64,000 nt of DNA, from assembly GCA_965219445.1 (NCBI GenBank), contig CBDCNQ010000003.1, forward strand, positions 256,001 through 320,000, written 5' to 3'. This DNA comes from Longimicrobiales bacterium. Its GTDB lineage: Bacteria; Gemmatimonadota; Gemmatimonadetes; Longimicrobiales; Gaopeijiaceae. Each line of letters begins with the position of its first letter. The stretch's first letter is position 1. The notes under the pieces were generated by a model. The model did not search any database. It saw nothing but the letters and a program-made list of their open reading frames with translations, and had not been told where the DNA came from. This document shows, one piece after another, positions 43,479-59,377 of this stretch. The translations under genes were made by a program, and so were the position numbers.

Positions 43479-44977
43479 CCCACGGTAGCCTCCGCTTCGA
43501 TCCCGACCAGGTACTCGTCTCCGATGAGACCCGCCTGGATCATTGTATTGGCAGGCCGTATGTGACCAAACCGCTCTCCATGCACCCGAGCCACGGCTTT
43601 CCACATGGAAGCATCTCGAATATACACCCGAGTGCGGACCACATCCTCGAGATTTGCTCCAAGAGACTTGAGCGCACCCTCGATCTTGTCGATCGCAAAA
43701 TGTGCCTGGGCTTCCGGGTCCGCTCCCCCGATCACGCGTGACCTGTGGGTCGCCGTCGTGCCCGAAATCCACACGTCACCGTGTGACCGAACTGCACGGC
43801 TGAACCCAGCGGTCTCCTCCCACGCCGTCCCGGTGAGAACCATGCTCCGACGATCAGCGCCCCGTTTCGTCTCATACGGGCGAGGAAAGGCCTCGAGGTC
43901 TCGGTCCGGATCACCGGTGGCCGTGAGGAACGGGGCCCTTCGATACTCATCCCCGCAGTCGCCGGGAAGGGGATCGAGTCTCGTCATCGCGTACTCGATG
44001 TCCGATCGATCCTTCTTCGTGAGCGACAACCCGAAAACTCTCAGGTTGTCCTGTATGTGCTCCTTCTCCCCGACTCGGGCTCCAATGATGATCGCGCCGA
44101 CGGCAGGCAGATCGAGCATGTAGCGACATGCGACGTTGGCGATGGAGGCTTTGCGCTTCTTCGCGACACCGTCCAGAGTTTGGAGGATGTGCTGAAAGGC
44201 GTCCCATCCCCCCGCCGCTTGGATGAGACGCCAGTACTTCGCCTCCGACCACGTCTTCAAGTCCTCGAGCTCTGGCTCAGCCGCCCCCAGCCAACGCTTC
44301 GTGAGCAGGCCTCCGGCCAGGGTCCCGTATACCAAGAGTTTGATATCGTGCCTGAGGCAAAGATCCGTCATGCCGATTCGAGCTCTTTGGTCGAAAATGG
44401 AATACGAAACCTGGTTGGACACGACATCGATTCCACTGGTCAGCGCGATGCGGAGATGGGCGGTATCGAAGTTCGTGAGTCCGAGCTGGCCGATGAGTCC
44501 CTCCTCCTTCAGGTCCTGAAGCCAAAAGAGGCAATCGAGCCAAGCCGGGTCAGCGTAGCTCCAAGCGTCGAACTGAAGAATGTCGATTTGTTCGGCCCCC
44601 ATCCGGCGCAGCGACCGTTGCACCGCCCCACGGACATCCTCGAAGTTGATGGGGCCGGGCTCAGGCACCCACGTCGTAATCAGTTGCGCCTCGGAACCCC
44701 GTGGGTGCCGCGCATGGAGGCGTCCGGCGATCACTTCCGCGGATCCATAGCCGTCCGCCATCGCGAAGGTCGTGAGGCCCGCTTCGAGATAGGGAACCAG
44801 AGCATCGGACGTAACGTCGGGATCGAGCGCATCACCGTCGCGCTCCATGTCCGCGATCTGCCAGAGTCCGGTTGATATCCTCGATACAGTGAATCCCGGC
44901 GCTAACCCGACGCGCTCCACAGCATCATCCATCGGCCCGCTTATCGGCCTTCGCATCGGCCTACCCATCGGCGTCAT
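43475..44977 (-). CDS. Aldo/keto reductase domain fused to a C-terminal RidA/YjgF domain
   Basis: GLWQ, LGLTNFD, SNQVSYS.FD, YGTLAGGLL; C-terminal WEETAGFSRAVR..ISGTTA..VVRTRVY..HGERF..IRPANT. Confidence 0.8.
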   Translation of the reverse strand: MTPMGRPMRRPISGPMDDAVERVGLAPGFTVSRISTGLWQIADMERDGDALDPDVTSDALVPYLEAGLTTFAMADGYGSAEVIAGRLHARHPRGSEAQLITTWVPEPGPINFEDVRGAVQRSLRRMGAEQIDILQFDAWSYADPAWLDCLFWLQDLKEEGLIGQLGLTNFDTAHLRIALTSGIDVVSNQVSYSIFDQRARIGMTDLCLRHDIKLLVYGTLAGGLLTKRWLGAAEPELEDLKTWSEAKYWRLIQAAGGWDAFQHILQTLDGVAKKRKASIANVACRYMLDLPAVGAIIIGARVGEKEHIQDNLRVFGLSLTKKDRSDIEYAMTRLDPLPGDCGDEYRRAPFLTATGDPDRDLEAFPRPYETKRGADRRSMVLTGTAWEETAGFSRAVRSHGDVWISGTTATHRSRVIGGADPEAQAHFAIDKIEGALKSLGANLEDVVRTRVYIRDASMWKAVARVHGERFGHIRPANTMIQAGLIGDEYLVGIEAEATVG

Positions 44978-45220
44978 CCTCCGGTGTCATCATCCTCTGA
45001 ACAGTCCCGATCCGAAGAAGGGACGGTGACGGTTGTCCATTCCGACACGCTCGAAGTGGATTCGAGGTGGGACCGTGTGCATGAGGTTGGCGATGGTTCG
45101 AGAAAAAATCCAGTACCGGGGAGCCCCGTCCTCGGCGAGCATCGGCCATTCGACGGGCCTCTTGTGCTTGAGCCCCGCGCAAGAAACTATGGGAGGAACT
45201 CGAGACACCTAAAACGCAAC

Positions 45221-48200
45221 ATGACGAACACCATCCCACCACGACCCCTCGTGGGCCGCACCCACGAGCTCGACGTCCTCGGCCGAGCCCTCACTTCGGC
45301 ACAGGGTGGATCGGGAGCAGCGATCTTCCTCAAGGGCGATACGGGCACCGGCAAGTCACGTCTCGCATCCGCGGTGGTCGAAGAGGCCACACGCGTCGGC
45401 TTCGAGACCATAAGCGGTCAGGCGTATCGCATGGACACCGGCGTTCCCTATGGGCTCTGGTCCAACGCGTTTTTTCCGAGGTTGCGGGAGATGGACGACG
45501 CCACGTTGACGGTGTTGACCCGCGGAGGCGCAGAAGAACTCTCGATCGTGGTGCCGGGGCTACGTTCCGGTGGTGCCGCTGAGCCCGTCTTTTCGTCGGC
45601 GGGTCCCGGCGAGCTTCGAACACGCATTCAGTGGAATTTCACCGAATTGCTGCGAGGGCTGAGCAGGAAGAGTCCGCTTCTGGTCGTGCTCGACGACCTC
45701 CATTGGAGCGATCCCTCGGGCCTGGACCTGTTTCACTTCGTTTCACGCCAAGTCACCGAGGTTCCCCTCGTTCTCCTAGGTGTGTACAACACGAAGGAGC
45801 TCGTCCACAATCCGGCTTTCCAAACGATGGAGCGACCGCTGCTGTCCGTTTCGGGCTCAGAGGCGCTGGACATCGGACCGCTCTCGGTCGACGAATCGGT
45901 GGACTTGGTTCTCGGCACGTTTCAAGCCGACGCCGGCATTGCGGAACCGCTGGCGCGGCGTGTCCATGAACGCGCGGCAGGGAATCCCTACTTCGTGGAG
46001 GAGATTCTCAAATCACTCGTGGACTCGGGAAGGCTCTTTCTACAGGACGGACGGTGGTTGGGTTGGGAGGTGGCGGATCTGGACCTCCCGGCGTCGGTCA
46101 CGGAGGCGGTTTCTGCCCGATTCGGCGAGTTGACCTCCGCGGCACGAGAGGTCGCGAATGTCCTGGCGGTGGCAGACACCCGGGTAGACCACGGGCTCCT
46201 CAGCACGGTGACCGATCAGGCCGAGGTCGACGTTCTTGCGGGCCTGGATCAACTGCGGACAGAGCAGCTCATCGAAGAGGCAACCGAGGGAGCGCACATC
46301 GTATACCGGTTCGTACATCCCTTGGTGCAGGAAGTCATCTACACCGAGATGGGGCTCGCCCGTGCTCGAGCCCTCCATCAGGGAATGGGCGAGGCATTGG
46401 AGCACGGAGAGGCATCGGTGATCGACGATCCGGCCCATGCCCTGGCCTATCACTTCTCCCGCGCCGGGGGTGATGACCCTCGGGTCGTACGGTACCTGGC
46501 GGCCGCGGGACGAGACGCGCTGGAAAGCCGGGCAAACCGCGAGGCCGAACGGTTCTTGAGGGAGGCGACGGAGCGGGTCGAGGCCGGAGCATTCACGGAA
46601 GAAGATACGGGCGTTGAGATACTCCGGCTGGAAGAGGATCTCGCGGGAGTGCTCCAACGACTCGGCGAGTACGGCCGAGCCGCAGACCATTGGAAGGCAG
46701 CCTTGAAGATCACCGTCGAGCGCAAGGACGACGCGCGCGCGGCCGCCCTCCACCGCCGGATTGGGCAGGCTGCATATTTCCGCGGCCTGTACCAGGAGGC
46801 AGTGAGCTCGTACACCGAGGGGCTGGAGTACGCTAAGGCGGCGGGTGATCGGTCCATCGAAGCCCACCTCCGTTTGTACATGGGGATCGCTCTTCAAGAC
46901 CAGGGGAATGCCGACGAAGCGCGGGAAGAGATGGAGACCGCACTGGCTGTCGCCGAAGCTGTGGCGGACCCGGGTCTGTTGGCCAGGGTCCGGCGTGGGC
47001 TGATGACCCATCACACCTGGCTTGGAAATATCGAGGAGGTGCGCGAGCACGGGCGCGAGGCCATCACCCTGTCCCAGCAGGCCGGAGACCGGCAGATCAC
47101 GTTCTGGGTCTATTGGCAGCTGGCGGTTCTCGAGGGCTTCCTGGGCGAAACCGAAGTGATGGACCGCCGCATTCAGCAATGTCGTGAAATCGCGAAGGGG
47201 CTGCGGTCTCCGGTTTTGGATCTCTGGACCTCGGACGTTTTGCTCGAACACGCGATGGCCGCAGGGGAGTGGGAGAACGGCATCGCCCTCGGAGAGCAGG
47301 CGGTGGCCCGGGCACGGTCTCTCGGGCAGGACGCACTCCTTCCGCGGCTTCTGGTGTTCCTTTCGCTGATCTACCTCGGGCGCGGAGAGATCGAGCGCGG
47401 CCGAGCTTGCGTGGACGAAGCGTGGACGATGTCCGGCGCCTCCTCCGGCGACCACTCCCGAGTGCACCTGGTGGTGCCAGCTCATATCGGGATGGCCGCT
47501 TACCATGTAGCTGCTGGAGAGTATGAGGAAGCGATTCGCGTCGGTGAAGCGGGGTTGGCCATCGCAGAGAACACCGGGTTCATCATCTGGGCGGCACATC
47601 GTCTTCTGCCGTTGATCGGCGAGGCATACCTGCAGATCCATGACGCGGCGGCCGGCAGCCACATCGAGCAGCGCATGCGGCGTTATGGCAAAAAGATCGG
47701 CACCCGAACCGGCTTGGCTTGGCTCAGCGCTTTCGAGGCAGTCAAGATCTGGTACAGTGGCGATATCGAACGAGCCACCGTGTTGCTACGCAAGGCCGCC
47801 GAAAGCCTCGAGGAGGTGCCCATGATCTACGACGCGGCTCGCCTGAGGAGACAACTGGCCGGCAGGCTCGCGGATCTCGGCAAGAAAGACGCCGCCCTTC
47901 AGGAGCTCCGTCGGGTGCATGACGTCTTCCAAAAAATCGGCGCGCAGCCGGAACTGAAGAAGACGCGCGGGATGTTCAGTGAGTTGAACACCCGGCCCCC
48001 GAGCATATCCAAGGGCACCGGAGCGGCGGCCCTGTCACAGCGGGAATTGGAGATCGCACGCCTGGTGGCTCGACGAAAGTCGAACAAGGCCATCGCCAAG
48101 GAGTTGGGGATCTCACCGCGAACGGTGAGTACGCACCTTTCCAACGTGTTTCAGAAGCTCGAGATCGGATCCCGCGGAGAGCTGGCCGACTACGCCAGGG

Positions 48201-48235
48201 AGCACAGTCTACTCTCCGGCGAAGCGGGGGGGTAG
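45221..48235 (+). CDS. Large AAA-ATPase/TPR/LuxR-HTH regulator (MalT/LAL-like)
   Basis: LVGR..EL, GDTGTGKSRL, LDDLHWSD, GNPYF, F.HPL, TPRs, LSQRE..SNKAIAKELGISPRTVSTHL. Confidence 0.88.
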   Translation: MTNTIPPRPLVGRTHELDVLGRALTSAQGGSGAAIFLKGDTGTGKSRLASAVVEEATRVGFETISGQAYRMDTGVPYGLWSNAFFPRLREMDDATLTVLTRGGAEELSIVVPGLRSGGAAEPVFSSAGPGELRTRIQWNFTELLRGLSRKSPLLVVLDDLHWSDPSGLDLFHFVSRQVTEVPLVLLGVYNTKELVHNPAFQTMERPLLSVSGSEALDIGPLSVDESVDLVLGTFQADAGIAEPLARRVHERAAGNPYFVEEILKSLVDSGRLFLQDGRWLGWEVADLDLPASVTEAVSARFGELTSAAREVANVLAVADTRVDHGLLSTVTDQAEVDVLAGLDQLRTEQLIEEATEGAHIVYRFVHPLVQEVIYTEMGLARARALHQGMGEALEHGEASVIDDPAHALAYHFSRAGGDDPRVVRYLAAAGRDALESRANREAERFLREATERVEAGAFTEEDTGVEILRLEEDLAGVLQRLGEYGRAADHWKAALKITVERKDDARAAALHRRIGQAAYFRGLYQEAVSSYTEGLEYAKAAGDRSIEAHLRLYMGIALQDQGNADEAREEMETALAVAEAVADPGLLARVRRGLMTHHTWLGNIEEVREHGREAITLSQQAGDRQITFWVYWQLAVLEGFLGETEVMDRRIQQCREIAKGLRSPVLDLWTSDVLLEHAMAAGEWENGIALGEQAVARARSLGQDALLPRLLVFLSLIYLGRGEIERGRACVDEAWTMSGASSGDHSRVHLVVPAHIGMAAYHVAAGEYEEAIRVGEAGLAIAENTGFIIWAAHRLLPLIGEAYLQIHDAAAGSHIEQRMRRYGKKIGTRTGLAWLSAFEAVKIWYSGDIERATVLLRKAAESLEEVPMIYDAARLRRQLAGRLADLGKKDAALQELRRVHDVFQKIGAQPELKKTRGMFSELNTRPPSISKGTGAAALSQRELEIARLVARRKSNKAIAKELGISPRTVSTHLSNVFQKLEIGSRGELADYAREHSLLSGEAGG

Positions 48236-51618: not shown

Positions 51619-53160
51619 TCAGGTGAAGTAGTCCGATACGTTGATCATGTACTTCTCCGGCTCCGTCACCTTGATAACGGATCGGGCGAAGGACCCGTTG
51701 GGCGCGGCGTCGGACAAATCCACGAGGGGTGGCTCATCGAGCCACACACCATCGGAATCGCAGATCAGACGGATGATCGGCCTGTGAATGAAGGCGGCGT
51801 CAGAATTCGCAGCGTGAACGATGCCTATTTCGTGTGTATCGAGAATCACGCATGTCCCCACCGGATAGATGCCCAAGAGATTGATCAGGGCCTTGACGAG
51901 CACCGCGTCGTGACCGCCGTCGGGGTCCTCTCGGAGCTCACGAAGCACGATGTCAGGCGCCTTTCGCGCAGCGTAGCTACGCGTACTCGTTGCGGCGTCG
52001 AACGCGGCAGCCAAGCCCACGATCTTGGAAAACACCGAGAGCTTTCTGGGTCGCAGGACCTTGGGATACCCAGAGAAATCCATCTTCATGTGGTGCTCGT
52101 AGGCCGTGATCATTCCTCGGTAGGGGATGTCGCCATAATCCCGAAATTGGTATGCGCTGAGGGCTCCGAGCCAAGTGTGGGACCTGAGGGTCTCCTGCTC
52201 CTCTTCCTCGAGTTCGCCCTCTTTCATGATGAGTTCCAGCGGGACCCGGCTCTTTCCTACATTATGGAGCAAAGCGGCCATTCCCAGGTCGAAAAGCCGA
52301 TTCTTGCTCAGGCCCAGCCGGCGACCGATGGCGACGCTGAAGATGCACACGTTGACGGTGTGGGCGAAGCTGTATTGGTCAAAGTCGTTCAACGTGGCGA
52401 GGCCCACCGAGGCCACCTCGTGGTTCAGCACCTGGTCGACGATGCTGCGAACGGCCTGTTTCATCTCTTTGAGATGAGCGCTTCGTCCCATCCGGGAGCC
52501 CTCCAAGAGATCCTTCGTGACGGCTACCGAGTTCTCATAGGTCTGCTTAGCTACCCTCCTGCGTTCCTCTTCATTCGAGAATGGTGTTTCTCCTTCCCCG
52601 GGAACACCAACCTTGATGTTTAGAACCCCACGCTCAACAAGCGCGCGCCGCAGCCGCTCCAATCCCTCTTGTCCCTCGGGCTCGGGTTCGGGCGCACCGA
52701 AACGGAGAACTTCTGAAATGAAGGTCTCCCACTCTCCACCACCCGCCGGTTTTTCCATTCGCACCCAGGCCACGCCCGCGTCGGATAGCGCGGCCACCAC
52801 GAGGCCGAACGAGGCAAAGTTGTCCAGATCCAGGTACAACCGTGAAGCGTTCAGGTAGAGCAGGCGCCCACGGATGCGTATCTCGAAGGCTCCGTCGAGG
52901 ACGAAAATGACCGACGCCGCCTCGGCCAGATCCTCGAGGTTTTGCCTTAAGTCGGCTGTGGCGACGGGGTGGAGCTTGACGGTCCGGATGGCCTCGTAGA
53001 GGGCGGGGAGGAAGCTCCCCCGCAGCTTGTACGCAGCGGCATCCGATTGAGCAGTCGTCTCGGAGGCTGAGACGGAACCATCCTTATCGAAGTCATGGAC
53101 CGGCGTCTCGGAAGGGACGGTCACGCTTGCCTGGTCAGGACCGGCCGTCTGCCCGCTCAT
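51619..53160 (-). CDS. HD-GYP domain protein (degenerate HD motif)
   Basis: HTVNV, LLHNVGK, EHH....SGYP, AAAFDA, LGIYPVG. Confidence 0.8.
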   Translation of the reverse strand: MSGQTAGPDQASVTVPSETPVHDFDKDGSVSASETTAQSDAAAYKLRGSFLPALYEAIRTVKLHPVATADLRQNLEDLAEAASVIFVLDGAFEIRIRGRLLYLNASRLYLDLDNFASFGLVVAALSDAGVAWVRMEKPAGGGEWETFISEVLRFGAPEPEPEGQEGLERLRRALVERGVLNIKVGVPGEGETPFSNEEERRRVAKQTYENSVAVTKDLLEGSRMGRSAHLKEMKQAVRSIVDQVLNHEVASVGLATLNDFDQYSFAHTVNVCIFSVAIGRRLGLSKNRLFDLGMAALLHNVGKSRVPLELIMKEGELEEEEQETLRSHTWLGALSAYQFRDYGDIPYRGMITAYEHHMKMDFSGYPKVLRPRKLSVFSKIVGLAAAFDAATSTRSYAARKAPDIVLRELREDPDGGHDAVLVKALINLLGIYPVGTCVILDTHEIGIVHAANSDAAFIHRPIIRLICDSDGVWLDEPPLVDLSDAAPNGSFARSVIKVTEPEKYMINVSDYFT

Positions 53161-54866
53161 GCGACCTCCTGGCGGAGTGCTTGTGCCGCCGCCGTGCGCA
53201 CAAGCACGTCACGATCCACGATCACCTCTTGAAGGATGAGCCTCGCCGAACGTGTTCCCACGTGGCCTAGAGCGAGCGTCGCGCATGCTCTCGTATCCGG
53301 ATCGCCCCGGCCCCTTCCCAGGCTCCCCCCAAGAATGAGGGTTTTGAGAGTCGGGACCGCAGCCTCGCCGGCGATGCTCCCGTACGCCTCGAAGAAGGCC
53401 CTCTTCTCCGTAAGGTCCAACTTACCCTTTCGATGATTCCGGACTACCGCTTCGATCTCTTCGAGAGCGCCGCTGTATGTGTGTGCCGACAATCCTTGTA
53501 CGGCCGCGATTCTGATATCTGGATCGGAATCCTGAAGGAGTGAGGCCAGCACCCTCAGGCCCTGTGCCGTCGGGACGCGCAGCAGTACGGGAACGAGCGC
53601 CGAGCGAATACGTACCTCGGCGTGGCCGGCCAACCCCTCCAGCTGCTCGCTCAGCCCATTCAACCCCTTCTCCCCGATGAACCGCAGAGCCTCCATGACC
53701 ACGACATCTTCGCTGGAATCGAGGGCGGTCATGATCACACCCGGTCGGGCCTCCGCCACCCGCCCGACGGCTTGACTTAGTAGCTCGTGGGTGTCCGGCC
53801 TCGAGAATCGATGAAGCCACTTGAGCGTGGTCGCGAACCCGTCGGGACGTAGCTCTCCGAGCACCTCCTCGAGGTCCTCCACGGACGGCTCCACTCCTGC
53901 CTGGTCGAGCGCGTGCATAAGCTGTGTCACCGCGCCCGGAGCTGACATCGCTCCGGCAAGTTGGTTCAACTGCGTGAGGTGGTCGGAATCAATCTCAGGA
54001 GCCCTCTTCAGAATCAGGCGGGCCTCCGAGAGGAGGTAGGCGACCGACCGGAAATCGCCACCGATGAGCAGCTGGGGCAGCAGATCCGTTAGGATGGCGA
54101 TGATCTCCGAGCGGACCTCGGGGTCCGTCTGTAGTTCGAAGGTGTCGAAGAGGAGCGAAAGCACGTTCCGACCGAGGTCCTGGGCGTATTCGCGCTCGAC
54201 CTCCTCCCTCAGATATCGAATCTCGGTGGTATCGAGGAAGTAGAGGGTGGACTCGTACGCATCTAGATCGACGATGCTCGGGTTGGCTCCCCCCGTATCC
54301 ACCTCCTCCTCGACCCGCTTCCGGACCTCGTCGGCTTTCGGACCCGTGGCTGAGGCTGAGGCTGAGGCTACGGGCCGGGCTCTCTCCGCCGCGGGCCGCG
54401 CTTTTTCCGCGGTGGCCCGACTCTCCGGCCCGCTGTCCGATGATTTCCATCGGATGTACTGAAAATCGGCAGTCCAGAGCAGCGTCTGGAGGTCATCGAC
54501 ATCCTCATGGGTCAGCGAACGCGAGCGGTGGATTGCTGCCAGGAACGTCCTGGCCTCTTCTTCCTCTACCCCAGGAGAGAAAGCGAGGAACCGGAGCCCG
54601 GCCTCGGATAGGGCCCAGGCCAATCCGTCCTGCTTGTCGACCGGCAAGACGTCGTCCGCTTCCCATTGGAGTCCGCAGTCCGTGACCGTGAGTGGCAAAC
54701 CACTCAGCCGTTCCCAGAGTCCAGCAAACCCAACCCTGACCTTCTCCATCGCTTGCTCGTGGATGGGGTGCCCCGGGCCGTGCACCGGTATCGTGCGGAG
54801 GCCCGCCTCGAGAAGTGTCAGAACTGCCCGGACACGAGAGATGTCATTCGGCTTGGTCGGGGGCAT
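53157..54866 (-). CDS. HEAT-repeat protein translationally coupled to the HD-GYP gene
   Basis: C-terminal helical repeats (D.DIRIAAVQGL, DTRACATLALG, LVRTAAAQAL); 4-bp overlap. Confidence 0.75.
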   Translation of the reverse strand: MPPTKPNDISRVRAVLTLLEAGLRTIPVHGPGHPIHEQAMEKVRVGFAGLWERLSGLPLTVTDCGLQWEADDVLPVDKQDGLAWALSEAGLRFLAFSPGVEEEEARTFLAAIHRSRSLTHEDVDDLQTLLWTADFQYIRWKSSDSGPESRATAEKARPAAERARPVASASASATGPKADEVRKRVEEEVDTGGANPSIVDLDAYESTLYFLDTTEIRYLREEVEREYAQDLGRNVLSLLFDTFELQTDPEVRSEIIAILTDLLPQLLIGGDFRSVAYLLSEARLILKRAPEIDSDHLTQLNQLAGAMSAPGAVTQLMHALDQAGVEPSVEDLEEVLGELRPDGFATTLKWLHRFSRPDTHELLSQAVGRVAEARPGVIMTALDSSEDVVVMEALRFIGEKGLNGLSEQLEGLAGHAEVRIRSALVPVLLRVPTAQGLRVLASLLQDSDPDIRIAAVQGLSAHTYSGALEEIEAVVRNHRKGKLDLTEKRAFFEAYGSIAGEAAVPTLKTLILGGSLGRGRGDPDTRACATLALGHVGTRSARLILQEVIVDRDVLVRTAAAQALRQEVA

Positions 54867-54987
54867 GGCTCGGCAGTTGCGGGGGCGTACTTGAAAGGTA
54901 TGCCCAATGACCGAGAAGACGGAAGCAAATTCGTGGCTCGGATCCGAAGGCGTACCGCCAAGATCCCTCGGCCCACCCGCCGCGACC

Positions 54988-56268
54988 TCAACCTTCCTGT
55001 TCACCCTCCGCCGCATAGGGGGCATCCAGACGAAACTCGGGATGTAGCGCGAGAAACGCTTGGACTCGGGCCTCCCGACTCAACGCTGTCGGAATGAAAT
55101 CAAGCGCCTGCTGCAGCCGCTCGTCGGACGCCGCACAGCTGAACCTCAGGAAGCCGGCCCCCGCGTCGCCGAAGCATTCCCCGCCCAGGCAGGCTACGCC
55201 GAACTGGTCGTCGGCCCCCTCCAGCAGATAGACCGCCAGACCGTGGCTGGTGATGCCCATCCGATTGCAGACGCTCGACACGTCCGAAAAGACATAGAAC
55301 GTGGCACGGGGCTCGAGCGTGCGGAAGCCATCGAGGCGGTTGAGGCCCTCGGTCAGCAAGCTCACCTTTCGGCCGAACTTTTCCATCGCCGTACCCCGCT
55401 CGGAGGAGTCCGTCTCCAACGCGGCCTTGCCGGCGATCTGCACCAAGGGTGGCGTGCACGAGAGCGTCGTGTTGATCATCGTGCCCACGGACTCGGCCGT
55501 GGTGGGCGATGACACGGCGAACCCGAGTCGCCACCCGCTCATGCTGTAGGATTTGCTGAACGTGTACGCGGCAAGCCCATGGTCCAGCATATCGGGCTGA
55601 GCCATCAAGGAATGGTGGCGACCCTTCCACACCATATGGCAGTACGGTTCATCACTGAAGACGGCGATCTGCTCGCCTCGAATCAGGTCGGCGATGCCCC
55701 GGAGGTCCTCCTCGGTCGCCACGCCCCCGGTCGGGTTGTGCGGCGAGTTGAGGAAGATCGCCTTCGGTGAAGGATCCTCCGCCAGGAAGTGCTCGATCTC
55801 CGCAGTGTCCGGCCGAAAGTCGTTCGTCTGCTTGAGGGGTGCGAACACCGGCCGACCGCCTCGTCGCTCGATGTTCGGCACATACGTCGGAAAATAGGGG
55901 CTGAAGACCAACACCCCATCACCCGGATTCAAGAACGCCTCGCAGAAGAACTGCTCGAAGACCTTGGCACCTGGGGCCACGACCACGTTCTCCCGCTCGG
56001 CGGGGATCCCGAATTCGTCGCGAACGAGTCGAGCCGCCGCGTCGCGGAATTCCGGCAGACCGGGTGACGGGCAGTAGTGGGACTGGTTCTGTTCGATGGC
56101 TTCGATGCCGGCGGTCTTGGCCGAATCCGGAGTGTCGAACGGGCTGTCACCGATCTCCAGCTCGACTACATCCTTCCCCGAGGCCTGCAGCTGCTTGGCT
56201 GTAGCCAGAACGGTGAACGCGGTTTCGGCCGTCAGGGACTTCGCGAAGGTACTGAGCTCAACGGTCAC
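54988..56268 (-). CDS. PLP-dependent class I/II aminotransferase (AspB-like)
   Basis: LEIGD, Y....GL...R, NSPHNPTG, SDEPY, FSKSYSMSGWRLG, FLRFS. Confidence 0.9.
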   Translation of the reverse strand: MTVELSTFAKSLTAETAFTVLATAKQLQASGKDVVELEIGDSPFDTPDSAKTAGIEAIEQNQSHYCPSPGLPEFRDAAARLVRDEFGIPAERENVVVAPGAKVFEQFFCEAFLNPGDGVLVFSPYFPTYVPNIERRGGRPVFAPLKQTNDFRPDTAEIEHFLAEDPSPKAIFLNSPHNPTGGVATEEDLRGIADLIRGEQIAVFSDEPYCHMVWKGRHHSLMAQPDMLDHGLAAYTFSKSYSMSGWRLGFAVSSPTTAESVGTMINTTLSCTPPLVQIAGKAALETDSSERGTAMEKFGRKVSLLTEGLNRLDGFRTLEPRATFYVFSDVSSVCNRMGITSHGLAVYLLEGADDQFGVACLGGECFGDAGAGFLRFSCAASDERLQQALDFIPTALSREARVQAFLALHPEFRLDAPYAAEGEQEG

Positions 56269-56449: not shown

Positions 56450-57325
56450 ATGGTGGCGGACATCGGTGGTCAAAAATCGTCGGAGCAGAGAGTGCGACGG
56501 GTCCTACGGGAAATCCGTTCCGGATCGAGAATGGGTTGGGACGAATTTGCCGAGCGGGTGGGTCACGCCGGCTTTCAGGTATCCCCCGCGGCCGTGCGTG
56601 GGTACGAAGAGGGACGAACGAAAAAAGTCCCCATCGCTTACGTCGATGCGGTGTGCCGCGCTTTTGGTGCGTCGCCGGCAAGCTTCTTCGCGGAGGATCT
56701 CGACGGAGCTCGGGACTCGCCTGATGAAGCCGAACGGCAACTCTCGGCCATCAGACAGATTCTCCGGGAATCTAATCCGGTCGCCCAGAGTCGACCGGAG
56801 GCTCCCCACGAGCCCGGGTCTCTACGGCGCCGTTTCCTTTCCGCAATTTCCGAGTACAGCGATCTCGAGGTGGAGCGGATCTGCGACCTGAACCATGAGA
56901 CGGTTCGGCAGTACCGCCAAGGGCAATGGCCGACCCGCGGCCCCAACGCATCGACCGAAGGCAAGATCGAGCGATTCCTGGAGCTCCACGAGCAGCGGCG
57001 AACGGCTGCGGCCACCCACGAGGGCGAGCTTCCCGCTCTGGTCGAGGGACTGATCGCCTTCGCCGAGGAATGGGAGAATGACCAGGAGTTCCGTGAACGT
57101 TACCCGAAGCACGGATGGATATCGATCACCGAGGACGCGATCCGGCAACTGAGGCGACTCCAGCTGGTGCGCTACGACGATGAGATCGCCTGGCTGGCTT
57201 ATAAACGGGCCGTTGGGTACACCCCGGAAAGTGCCGATGACGTCGGGCTCGCCGACCTAGGTATGAGCATCGACCCGTTTCTATCACGAGCATCGCAACG
57301 CAAAGCCGGAGAAGAGTCAAACTAA
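56450..57325 (+). CDS. XRE/Cro-type HTH regulator with a second HTH-like region
   Basis: LREIR...MGWDEFAERV..SPAAVRGYEEG..VP..AVCRAFG; second region SDLEVERICDLNHETVRQYRQG. Confidence 0.7.
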   Translation: MVADIGGQKSSEQRVRRVLREIRSGSRMGWDEFAERVGHAGFQVSPAAVRGYEEGRTKKVPIAYVDAVCRAFGASPASFFAEDLDGARDSPDEAERQLSAIRQILRESNPVAQSRPEAPHEPGSLRRRFLSAISEYSDLEVERICDLNHETVRQYRQGQWPTRGPNASTEGKIERFLELHEQRRTAAATHEGELPALVEGLIAFAEEWENDQEFRERYPKHGWISITEDAIRQLRRLQLVRYDDEIAWLAYKRAVGYTPESADDVGLADLGMSIDPFLSRASQRKAGEESN

Positions 57326-57432
57326 AATAACCCTAATTATTGCGCTTTTGTACTTTATCAGCTTGATTCCTGTGCAGGGGCATCGTGGCTTCCCCATGAC
57401 CGCCCCCCGGATCAGATCACAGGAGGCACGAG

Positions 57433-57576
57433 ATGAGCAAGCTGATGAGGATGTGGGTGTTCTTGGCGGTCACGGGATTCATGACGGCGTGTGGGGGATC
57501 GCCGGTCGATCTAGCGGGCGGTTGCGGCGGTGTGCCGTCCCCGAACAGCTACTGTGACGACGATGACGACGATTGA
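57433..57576 (+). CDS. 47-aa lipoprotein-signal peptide MSKLMRMWVFLAVTGFMTACGGSPVDLAGGCGGVPSPNSYCDDDDDD (below the ORF-track cutoff)
   Basis: Perfect AGGAGG RBS at 57421-57426; basic N-region, hydrophobic core, MTA-C lipobox. Confidence 0.7.
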   Translation: MSKLMRMWVFLAVTGFMTACGGSPVDLAGGCGGVPSPNSYCDDDDDD

Positions 57577-58961
57577 GCTCCGCTAGCTAACAGTTCGAGC
57601 TGGGTCCGGATCTCTTCTTCTTCGGTATCGCGAACCACCGGGTCCGGGTCCAGCAAGGGCTGCCAAGGTCTTTCGAGGTCGAGCGCCGCTTCGATGTCGA
57701 ACACGAGCTTACCGAGCTTCGCCTCCTCGGCGTAGCGGAGCGCCGCCTCGAGGGCGTCTTGCCCCTCCGGCCGGTCGAGGGCGAGTAGGGCCTGACCTCG
57801 CTCAAAGAGGATCTGTCCTTTCCCCATCGCTGATAGTTCGGCGTCGTCGACTTTCGACGAAAAAAAATCGAAGGACGCCTCGTCTCCTCTGAAGGCGGAC
57901 ATCACGGCGAGGTTCTGGGCGGCGTGGTGTCGAGTCTCGGTAAGCGGCGAGCCATTCATCGTCATGAGGTTACAACACCAGGCCTCCTCTGATCTTCCCA
58001 GTCTACGAAAGCAGTCACCGAGCGTAACGAGAATATCCCATTCGTCGTCGAGCCCACGCGCCTCCGTGAAGGCGCGCCATCCGACTCGAACCGCTTCGGT
58101 CCAGGCTTCGGCGTCGCGATGGATCAGCATGAGCCCGAAATAGCCCTGTGCGACCGCCTGCCGGGCTCCGGCAGTCTGGCCCTCTTCGATCGCCGAGCGG
58201 AAGAGAGTCTCGGCCGCGGCGATCGCGCCCTTTTCCCGACGGACGTTCGCGAGACCGATAGCCACGTGGGCCGCCGCATCGAGCCTCCCAAACGCAAGCG
58301 CCGTGTCCCGGGCCTGCTGATACCAAGTGACGGCTTCGTCCCATCGCCCGAGTTTGCGAAGCGCTCTACCTAAAAAGCGCGCTGCGCGGATCGCCGCAGC
58401 TTTATTCGCCGTGGAAAGAGCGGCCTCGTGGGCCTGGCTGTAGGTGGTGATCGCCGACTCGAAGTCGGAAGCGTCCTCCGTGGCCTCGCCCTCGGCGATC
58501 AGTTCCGTTACGGAAAGGTTCGCAGTCGGCTCGACCCCTTCAATCCGCCCGATCGCCCAGGTCGCCACCCAGGCGGCGATCTCAGCCGCACGGCCCAAGT
58601 TCCTGCCGACCTCCAAGCGGCGATCCCCCTGAAGGACGAGAAACCAGGATCGGCCGTGACGCTCAGCCAGGAACAGGCCTGCCCACGTATTGGCTCTGGT
58701 TTGGCCACTGTGGAGCCGTCCAACCACGGACTCCCTTCGGCTGTTCCTGATGAATTCCTCCGGGACGCTCTCGAACCCGCATCCGTGCTCCGCCTCCGGG
58801 GGGCAGAGCGTCAGGTAGGGGTGCAGCACCCCGCCATTCTCCGTGTAAGACCAAACCAAGCCGGCGCTCGCGGCCCCCGACTCCTGCTTGAGCGTCGCCA
58901 GTTTCGGTGCCAGGCGGCTCCGAATCGGATCGTAGGAGTAAAGCTGGAATTTGCGTGTCAT
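57549..58961 (-). CDS. TPR-repeat protein with an uncharacterised N-terminal domain
   Basis: Tandem TPRs (LGRALRKLGRWDEAVTWYQQA; GLANVRREKGAIAAAETLF; LGDCFRRLGRSEEA); no signal peptide. Confidence 0.75.
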   Translation of the reverse strand: MTRKFQLYSYDPIRSRLAPKLATLKQESGAASAGLVWSYTENGGVLHPYLTLCPPEAEHGCGFESVPEEFIRNSRRESVVGRLHSGQTRANTWAGLFLAERHGRSWFLVLQGDRRLEVGRNLGRAAEIAAWVATWAIGRIEGVEPTANLSVTELIAEGEATEDASDFESAITTYSQAHEAALSTANKAAAIRAARFLGRALRKLGRWDEAVTWYQQARDTALAFGRLDAAAHVAIGLANVRREKGAIAAAETLFRSAIEEGQTAGARQAVAQGYFGLMLIHRDAEAWTEAVRVGWRAFTEARGLDDEWDILVTLGDCFRRLGRSEEAWCCNLMTMNGSPLTETRHHAAQNLAVMSAFRGDEASFDFFSSKVDDAELSAMGKGQILFERGQALLALDRPEGQDALEAALRYAEEAKLGKLVFDIEAALDLERPWQPLLDPDPVVRDTEEEEIRTQLELLASGAQSSSSSSQ

Positions 58962-59377
58962 GGCATTAATTTTATGAGTGATGGCAGGCGTTAATATGGC
59001 ATTGCTAATATAGTCAGCGCTCACCCCGGGAGAAAAGGCGCATGAATGGATAATACAACGAATTTTGCGCAACTATTGCTTAGTGTGCCCCGCATGTTTA
59101 GACTGGTGTTAAGGCACGTGCGGGCAGGTGCCCTGGCTTCTATGACCCTGGGGGGGGCTCTTGAGTCAGAACTGTTGCGCGGTGGAGGGTTGCCGCGGAC
59201 CGACTGCCCGCACCTTTTTCCCTTCCTGATTGGTATGATCCCTCCAATGGCCAGCCCCTTTTCGTCGAGGGTTGGTGTCCGTCGATGGGTGACGCTCCGC
59301 TGAGGGAGAAAAGTGGCCGTTCTCGACCTGAGGTCCCCTGGACTCAGCGTGTACATCGGCATGGGAAGGTTCACCGG

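Follow-up and report, generated by a model that had tools for sequence, protein, structure and literature searches.

According to published surveys, peptide signalling through cytoplasmic receptors built of tetratricopeptide repeats (TPRs) is described for Bacillota and their mobile elements, and an RRNPP system is recognized by a Sec-secreted propeptide of 10-100 amino acids (aa) encoded adjacent to a receptor of 250-500 aa with TPRs (PMC10075063). Of 2,734 RRNPPA propeptides, 211 (about 8%) are predicted to be of the lipoprotein type, and the receptor AimR binds DNA itself (PMC9765709). Tandem pheromone copies are known from Phr propeptides (PMC11343458). Rap-Phr, which occurs in Bacillus and its plasmids and phages, represents the RRNPPA branch whose receptor has no helix-turn-helix (HTH) domain and acts through a three-helix bundle. 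Here, a gene cassette with similar components is described in a diderm, a Longimicrobiales bacterium of the phylum Gemmatimonadota. It is encoded in a stretch of 64,000 nt (contig CBDCNQ010000003.1, positions 256,001 to 320,000), referred to as the window; all coordinates are window positions unless a locus is named.

The cassette consists of an XRE-family regulator gene (291 aa, 56450..57325, plus strand), a prolipopeptide gene (47 aa, 57433..57576, plus strand) and, convergent to it, the gene of a cytoplasmic TPR protein (470 aa, 57549..58961, minus strand). The three open reading frames (ORFs) are located as listed in an earlier description of this DNA, hereafter the original prediction, which had proposed an RRNPP-like sensing module in a diderm. 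All three genes are genuine and together make up a conserved unit. By analogy, the cassette is likely a Rap-Phr-like peptide signalling switch, to which a probability of roughly 0.55 is assigned. This reading builds on the gene trio and its conservation, the lipobox and terminal core of the peptide, the TPR fold of the receptor and a receptor Pfam scan that contains no DNA-binding domain.

A protein search with the TPR protein returned 44 homologues, 42 of them at 50-95% identity. At the genome level, matches were found in 53 of 151 family genomes by the single-protein search and in 115 of 301 phylum genomes by a profile search, the latter tally including the unpublished genome G293, which is used in no other count. 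All genome matches fall within the class of the window, Gemmatimonadetes, and six sampled families (46 genomes) yielded no match to the TPR family. The loci examined comprise all 58 single-protein match rows, the best 68 of 135 profile rows and loci from other searches. Removal of duplicates, one unrelated locus, truncated genes and 12 contig-end loci left 127 evaluable loci; the 66 weakest phylum matches stand outside this count, and the rate may be lower there. At 123 of the 127 loci, a small lipobox ORF on the opposite strand ends within 200 nt of the TPR stop codon. A same-strand control was positive at 1/127 loci, and the lipobox-ORF test was positive at 14 of 3227 long ORFs in the background of the window's own genome. 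The four loci without a peptide include L050, disrupted by an insertion sequence (IS), and L110, whose TPR gene has an internal stop. Homologous TPR genes nearly always adjoin a small signal-peptide ORF, as anticipated by the original prediction. Three features define the cassette here, and all are present in the window: a TPR protein of this family, a convergent lipopeptide whose core is a 7-mer, and a gene for a regulator on the far side of the peptide gene. It is apparently unpublished: no description was found in the full-text literature, a search whose coverage excludes most subscription journals and the supplements of RRNPP surveys.

The window peptide starts with a basic N-terminus, followed by a hydrophobic core and the lipobox MTAC (Cys20), called by sequence pattern. 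This 19-aa type II signal precedes a short linker, a Cys31-Cys41 loop and an acidic tail. The ribosome binding site noted in the original prediction is present as a strong Shine-Dalgarno motif, AGGAGG (57421..57426, plus strand), six bases ahead of the ATG, where the stretch GGAGGCAC is invariant in 12 aligned loci. Coding constraint is evident for the small ORF, as the frame is kept in 16/16 aligned orthologues and the non-synonymous rate is below the synonymous one (pN 0.27 vs pS 0.48). A lipobox is found in all 123 family peptides, whose mature part spans 10-67 aa, and position +2 is Asp in 0/123. In E. coli, Asp at +2 bears on the membrane destination of a lipoprotein; by this sorting rule, outer-membrane sorting is predicted for the family.

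The peptide tails of the family can be aligned on a shared register of seven residues: position 4 is G/N/D, position 5 is S/P, position 6 is N/G and position 7 is mostly N/T/S/G. A confident register was obtained for 100 of 112 aligned rows, and in 59 of these 100 the core is the C-terminal end of the peptide. It is tandemly repeated in 37 of the 123 peptides (up to 8 times) and flanked by cysteines in 50, including the window peptide. For the latter, the heptapeptide GVPSPNS (aa 33-39, 57529..57549, plus strand) is the predicted core, in register with the tandem heptapeptides of the family. Pro37 and Asn38 are invariant across 13 aligned Cys-loop peptides of the XRE-linked branch; two other members of this branch have tandem PNG repeats and no cysteines. 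On the tree, the core underwent 17-35 changes per position. In a deep-branching member of the XRE-linked branch with a single terminal core and no Cys loop (genome G032), the whole peptide gene is duplicated, with tandem copies that differ at two residues (L054:495-836). A further cassette variant was observed in two order-level relatives (L081 and L082), whose lipopeptides are acidic and end in ANNN or TNNN; no AraC gene lies past the peptide gene there.

The TPR protein has no signal or membrane segment (maximum hydropathy 1.20), in line with its predicted cytoplasmic location. It is composed of a GAF-like domain followed by seven TPR-type helix pairs and capping helices. The helix pairs are modelled by AlphaFold2 with a predicted local distance difference test (pLDDT) score above 85, and Pfam assigns TPR_12 (E 1.7e-14). 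The superhelix (aa 151-413, 57723..58511, minus strand) forms a predicted peptide-binding groove, and Arg202 is invariant in 112 family members. A Pfam scan of the receptor gave no HTH or other DNA-binding domain. An NCBIfam scan yielded nothing above cut-off. The closest structural matches to the TPR model are LGN (Z 23.2, root-mean-square deviation 3.7, 285 aligned residues) and Pins (Z 22.4). These eukaryotic binders of extended peptides share 16-17% identity with the model, a generic repeat resemblance that implies no functional homology. LGN/Pins-type proteins are also among the best PDB sequence matches (E about 1e-21), while no Rap or NprR chain is found among the best 60 of 104. RRNPP receptors, namely RapI (Z 17.5), RapH (16.9), the pLS20 Rap (16.6) and NprR (15.7), appear among many unrelated TPR proteins. 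In the comparison with RRNPP folds, suggested along with the original prediction, Rap and NprR thus match at the level of unrelated TPR proteins and below LGN and Pins; the fold is a generic peptide-binding superhelix and not specific to RRNPP. Since Rap and NprR stand amid unrelated TPR proteins, the fold is compatible with peptide binding and the protein is not placed in RRNPP. As LGN, Pins, RapI and NprR all bind extended peptides, the best fold matches count towards peptide binding.

The N-terminal domain (aa 1-143, 58533..58961, minus strand), unrecognized in the original prediction, is likely GAF-like. With a deeper alignment, AlphaFold2 models it at pLDDT 82 with the element order alpha-beta-beta-alpha-alpha-beta-beta-alpha, which is compatible with the GAF topology of an antiparallel sheet between helices. 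Weak Pfam GAF_2 matches occur in 4 of 51 aligned members (best E 0.003), and ESM leads point towards GAF at 0.78-0.79. A PDB sequence search with the alignment of this domain gave a best E of 0.44. Three receptor architectures were found in the family. Gemmatimonadales receptors have no GAF-like domain and combine a helical mid domain with the TPRs; in Longimicrobiales, a GAF-like domain precedes both; and in the branch of the window, the GAF-like domain is combined with the TPRs only. The mid domain of about 72 positions was detected by an iterated profile in 98 of 99 AraC-linked and 0 of 6 XRE-linked receptors. Between the last beta-strand motif and TPR1 lie 54 residues in the window protein vs about 150 in the long form (580-620 aa). 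The N-terminal domain is joined directly to TPR1 because the branch lacks the approximately 100 residues that hold the mid domain.

A gene for a DNA-binding regulator is located beyond the peptide gene in most cassettes, which agrees with the separate DNA-binding output expected earlier. Clustering identified such a gene at 114 of 123 loci: a divergent AraC in 100 and an XRE in 14, with three more XRE loci being partial at contig ends. XRE is present in 7 of 301 family genomes. The AraC partner comprises an HTH_18 domain and a receiver-like N-terminus. Receivers are typically characterized by an acidic pocket, the beta-3 Asp and a Lys; the AraC N-terminus keeps the beta-3 Asp and, by eye, lacks the acidic pocket and the Lys. 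The window XRE protein had been described as a double-HTH protein. Its first HTH (aa 17-77) is supported by Pfam HTH_31 (E 2.4e-6, 28.2 bits at a cut-off of 27), the only HTH matched by Pfam. The second, an HTH-like block at aa ~135-166, is unconfirmed. It is the best-conserved part of the alignment and has weak support from ESM-atlas leads at 0.87-0.90, and it gave no significant profile match to the first HTH (hhalign probability 0.5%). A helical C-terminal domain of unknown family follows. Weak matches of the XRE protein to C.BclI and a prophage protein were obtained, and 12 of the 14 XRE members match PHROGs regulator families.

At 19 of the 20 loci of the XRE branch a peptide gene is present, and XRE lies upstream in 18 of these 19, the contig ending too early in the remaining one. 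Two of the branch loci (L036 and L037) encode the same peptide and could stem from a single organism. The tree was built from 60 of 112 rows chosen to span the groups and rooted on Gemmatimonadales. In it, the XRE branch forms a single clade (98*) whose sister is the clade with GAF-like plus mid domain, so loss of the mid domain and change of the regulator are one derived event. The branch of the window copy appears to have exchanged AraC for XRE, a minority, derived partner. The tail-to-tail link of peptide and TPR genes was kept through this replacement. The AraC-form cassette shares with the window the TPR family, the convergent lipopeptide and the core register. In contrast to the divergent AraC, the XRE gene lies upstream of the peptide gene and is co-directional with it; moreover, the window form is patchy and often decayed, and its receptor has no segment of ~100 residues between the GAF-like domain and TPR1.

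Some further observations concern regulator genes. A second, divergent XRE (~43% identity) with its own Cys-loop lipopeptide is encoded in genome G454 (L173:1236-2520), with an IS transposase at the expected TPR position. In G032, a 426-codon frame is divergent from XRE (L177:986-2263, contig C149), the C-terminus of which looks LanC-like on inspection by eye. The protein at G000:C5:1493335-1494270 is of the AraC type, matches only the C-terminal half of the cassette AraC profile and may be a distant orphan partner. XRE-PAS fusion and tandem receiver proteins recur near two cassette copies (L033:5749-6462, L050:6507-7235).

Covariation between peptide and receptor was analysed with the groove-facing positions of helix A (2, 5, 6, 9, 12 and 13 of each repeat), assigned from the general architecture of TPRs. 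Groove columns carry more information on the core than outer columns (residual 0.25 vs -0.12) and make up 8 of the top 20 columns, with 3.1 expected. In 49 branch-disjoint pairs, change in the core was correlated with change in the groove when overall divergence was controlled (rho 0.28, p 0.054). The same test gave -0.01 for the signal peptide and 0.12 for the linker, both of which track overall divergence instead. After one post hoc register fix, rho was 0.32 (p 0.027), a value reached by 4.6% of 1000 random column sets. These values give weak support to a core-to-groove covariation, and the check is borderline: the groove columns lead, and the controls are partly enriched too. Modelling of the receptor (aa 143-463) together with the peptide (aa 18-47) scored 0.01 with an uncertain fold of the partner and counts neither for nor against binding.

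How the cassette might work can be outlined on the basis of established lipoprotein biology and, for every step after export, on what we infer. The lipopeptide would be exported via Sec, processed by Lgt and LspA and sorted to the outer membrane. If the RRNPP analogy and the weak covariation hold, a protease would free the short C-terminal core, which would re-enter the cell through a peptide transporter, for which family-5 binding proteins are encoded, and bind to the TPR groove; the activity of the neighbouring regulator would then change. In the AraC form, the ~72-aa helical domain might play the role of the Rap three-helix bundle and contact the AraC pseudo-receiver, a contact for which the co-loss of both is suggestive. 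As the window branch lost the mid domain and gained XRE, the output would likely pass through the GAF-like or the TPR domain to XRE. This regulator might act at a conserved box upstream of the TPR gene (CAACTATTG, see below), between that gene and a putative divergent non-coding transcript.

With respect to the RRNPP signature, the window propeptide (47 aa) is within the size range, carries by pattern a Sec signal with a lipobox, of type II rather than the usual type I, and is encoded adjacent to the receptor in a convergent layout. The receptor has 470 aa with TPRs; the relatives of 580-620 aa are above the range. In place of the N-terminal HTH or three-helix bundle of RRNPP receptors, it has an alpha/beta GAF-like N-terminus, and the host belongs to Gemmatimonadota rather than Bacillota or their mobile elements. 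As both host range and N-terminal effector differ and the fold matches do not single out RRNPP receptors, the cassette is likened to Rap-Phr and not filed as RRNPP. What stands of the proposed sensing module is the adjacent lipopeptide, the regulator and the pheromone-like cores; covariation is borderline. As in Rap-Phr, a cytoplasmic TPR protein of 400-600 aa without DNA-binding domain is encoded beside a small Sec-exported propeptide with a terminal, sometimes repeated core, and in the AraC form a helical domain ahead of the TPRs co-occurs with a receiver-like partner. Unlike in Rap-Phr, the host is a diderm, all 123 propeptides are of the lipoprotein type, the genes are convergent and a transcription factor is fixed as third gene. 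Further differences are the GAF-like domain of the Longimicrobiales receptors, the missing helical domain in the window branch and the Cys-flanked cores (50/123). The AimR-AimP-AimX system likewise combines receptor, propeptide and a regulated neighbouring transcript, the counterpart of which here would be a putative transcript of the conserved divergent non-coding element. Unlike there, DNA binding resides in the separate XRE, and no relative was found in viral contigs.

Several results weigh against a signalling switch of the Rap-Phr kind. In its fold, the receptor resembles RRNPP receptors no more than it does many other TPR proteins. The covariation controls are groove-enriched as well (signal peptide 0.09 vs -0.02, linker 0.14 vs -0.07, p about 0.002-0.003), with 5 of the top 20 columns facing the groove; given this weaker but same trend, shared ancestry explains part of the enrichment. 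Core positions 4-7 alone gave rho 0.15 (p 0.32), none of five single-site independent-pair tests was significant, and 12 of 112 rows were dropped from the core analysis for want of a confident register. Loss of the mid domain and the AraC-to-XRE swap are a single tree event, so their correlation has n = 1. Moreover, a lipid-anchored precursor and a disulphide-closed loop would both need cutting or reduction to reach a cytoplasmic receptor, and no recurring protease or transporter is found among the neighbouring gene families examined. On the supporting side, the genome of the window encodes LspA and family-5 peptide-binding proteins.

The two-membrane problem disappears if the TPR protein binds the tail of prolipopeptide that accumulates unexported in the cytoplasm. 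The cassette would then be a cell-autonomous export checkpoint that reports Sec/Lgt/LspA or envelope stress without re-import. Tight linkage, the groove signal and the absence of a dedicated protease or importer are accounted for in this way. Such a checkpoint gives no reason for the diversification of the core (17-35 changes per position) or for paralogous cassettes with different cores in one genome, and the Cys-flanked loops (50/123) suggest selection on the oxidized, exported form; it is considered unlikely. The borderline result of the phylogeny-controlled covariation is in line with a lipopeptide that is output only, i.e., a small outer-membrane lipoprotein switched on by the regulator, with the TPR protein controlling this regulator in answer to another input and making no contact with the lipopeptide. 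The GAF-like domain offers such an input through its ligand, and co-regulation can hold the genes together. However, Gemmatimonadales receptors without the GAF-like domain still keep the peptide gene, the tail-to-tail link outlasted the replacement of the regulator, and a structural lipoprotein would not usually carry exact heptapeptide repeats that run up to the stop codon, which renders this explanation improbable.

A lipid-anchored lipopeptide could also be displayed on the surface or passed on by contact or vesicles as a short-range kin label, with the TPR protein acting downstream of uptake or of another sensor. The universal lipobox without Asp at +2, the variable tails and repeat numbers and the coexistence of several related strains in one sample are consistent with such an identity tag. 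As no cassette-linked membrane sensor was found and the linked candidate receptor is cytoplasmic, we regard the chance of this as small. A leader followed by repeated cores, as in the small ORF, resembles some precursors of ribosomally synthesized and post-translationally modified peptides, the modifying enzymes of which would have to be encoded elsewhere. Neither the 26 neighbours scanned nor the recurring flanking clusters contain a modifying enzyme, and the leader is a lipoprotein signal; such a precursor is highly improbable.

If the cassette is a peptide signalling switch, a language of this sort exists in a diderm phylum, where dozens of cognate pairs of peptide and receptor can be predicted, and the question is raised by what route the signal from a lipid-anchored precursor gets back into the cytoplasm. 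In the XRE branch, a domain deletion has occurred as a natural experiment, and it points to where on its surface the receptor binds the effector. A wider proposal, for which we see somewhat less than even odds, is a class-wide communication of Gemmatimonadota by ribosomal peptides and cytoplasmic TPR receptors, independent of RRNPP or diverged from it beyond recognition. Its pheromones would be heptapeptides, tandem or closed by a disulphide, that are cleaved from lipoproteins of the outer membrane. The system would be modular: one branch would have deleted the effector domain, replaced AraC by XRE and come to control a divergent non-coding RNA, resulting in another channel, orthogonal to the first, that is found alongside it in some genomes and was repeatedly lost by deletion.

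Upstream of the TPR gene, a candidate XRE operator is located at 59059..59104 (plus strand). It contains the conserved box CAACTATTG (59070-59078) within an imperfect inverted repeat, found with at most one mismatch in 12 of 14 branch loci, and a weak sigma70-like promoter (TTGCTT-17-TAGACT), directed away from the TPR gene and below the threshold of the consensus scanner. The last three bases of the box open the TTGnnn-17-TAnnnT spacing, which is kept in 9 of 14 loci. It is followed by a conserved non-coding element of ~100 nt (59112..59218, plus strand), a candidate regulated RNA with this promoter-like signal of its own. The element is 86% conserved in seven loci with differing flanks and stays with the TPR gene in close relatives even where the sequence on the other side is different. 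It was not detected in relatives of 50% identity and has no credible Rfam match. A possible three-way junction, in which 197 of 203 cells are paired, shows several one-sided changes and no double-sided change, and the element folds no better than shuffled sequences (minimum free energy z 0.08). Two observations weaken its interpretation as a mobA leader: the element remains with the TPR gene where the flanks are different, and in 8 of 12 genus genomes it is missing from the region upstream of mobA. The possibility of a small ORF across the element was discarded, since single-base indels break the frame. The TPR gene itself has no Shine-Dalgarno motif ahead of its ATG (58962-58975); on the minus strand, 7 nt before the ATG, there is an AT-rich hexamer, TAAAAT. 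The TPR message could be leaderless, but the hexamer is not conserved in relatives.

Of the 12 genus genomes, three have an intact cassette next to mobA. Two contain deletion remnants, namely a 5' XRE fragment (G473) and an XRE start fused to the non-coding element (G479); in the latter, the ~100-nt element has outlasted the deletion of the remaining cassette. In the other seven, no cassette trace was seen within 1.5 kb upstream of mobA. Two further cassette copies are disrupted by IS insertions. Both the decay alleles and the IS insertions indicate that the locus is accessory and in the process of being lost. XRE and AraC cassettes with different cores occur together in G093 (L053, L123) and G103 (L052, L125), while the window genome has the XRE form only. 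Since no integrase or recurring mobile gene was found among the neighbours examined, a prophage or island reading was dropped; 47 pattern matches in IMG/VR viral contigs included none that was confirmed as a relative.

As described in the original prediction, the cassette is flanked by housekeeping genes, a class I/II aminotransferase (Aminotran_1_2) on one side and a MobA-like NTP transferase on the other (Pfam scan). The spacers are AT-richer, with a GC content of 0.55 and 0.54 in 300-nt windows over them vs 0.60-0.66 in most neighbouring windows. The 28-nt overlap between the 3' ends of the small ORF and the TPR gene is likewise present and is the product of a local 3' extension. Across the family, a stop overlap of 4 nt is the most frequent arrangement (31 of 123 loci), with a range from -28 to +187. 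A public contig, possibly the source sample, covers the entire stretch with 0 differences in the piece listed (56,450 to 58,961). Upstream of the aminotransferase gene, genes for an HD-domain protein (513 aa) and a HEAT-repeat protein (622 aa) adjoin at 51622-55025. A 1109-codon frame at 44906-48235 (plus strand) has a TPR-like stretch with a weak match to the family profile (E 3.6e-14) and is probably an unrelated multidomain TPR protein. In other genomes, the cassette or a truncated TPR remnant is located at a site differing from that of the window (G103, L052:5635-14299; G129, L051), whose flanking genes, by eye, are presumably mnmG/gidA-like and parA/parB-like genes near the dnaA region. 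The long AraC form is found at one conserved site (L056-L075) beside SH3, Ig-like lipoprotein, zinc-ribbon, EamA, peptidase S13-LysM and Fur genes.

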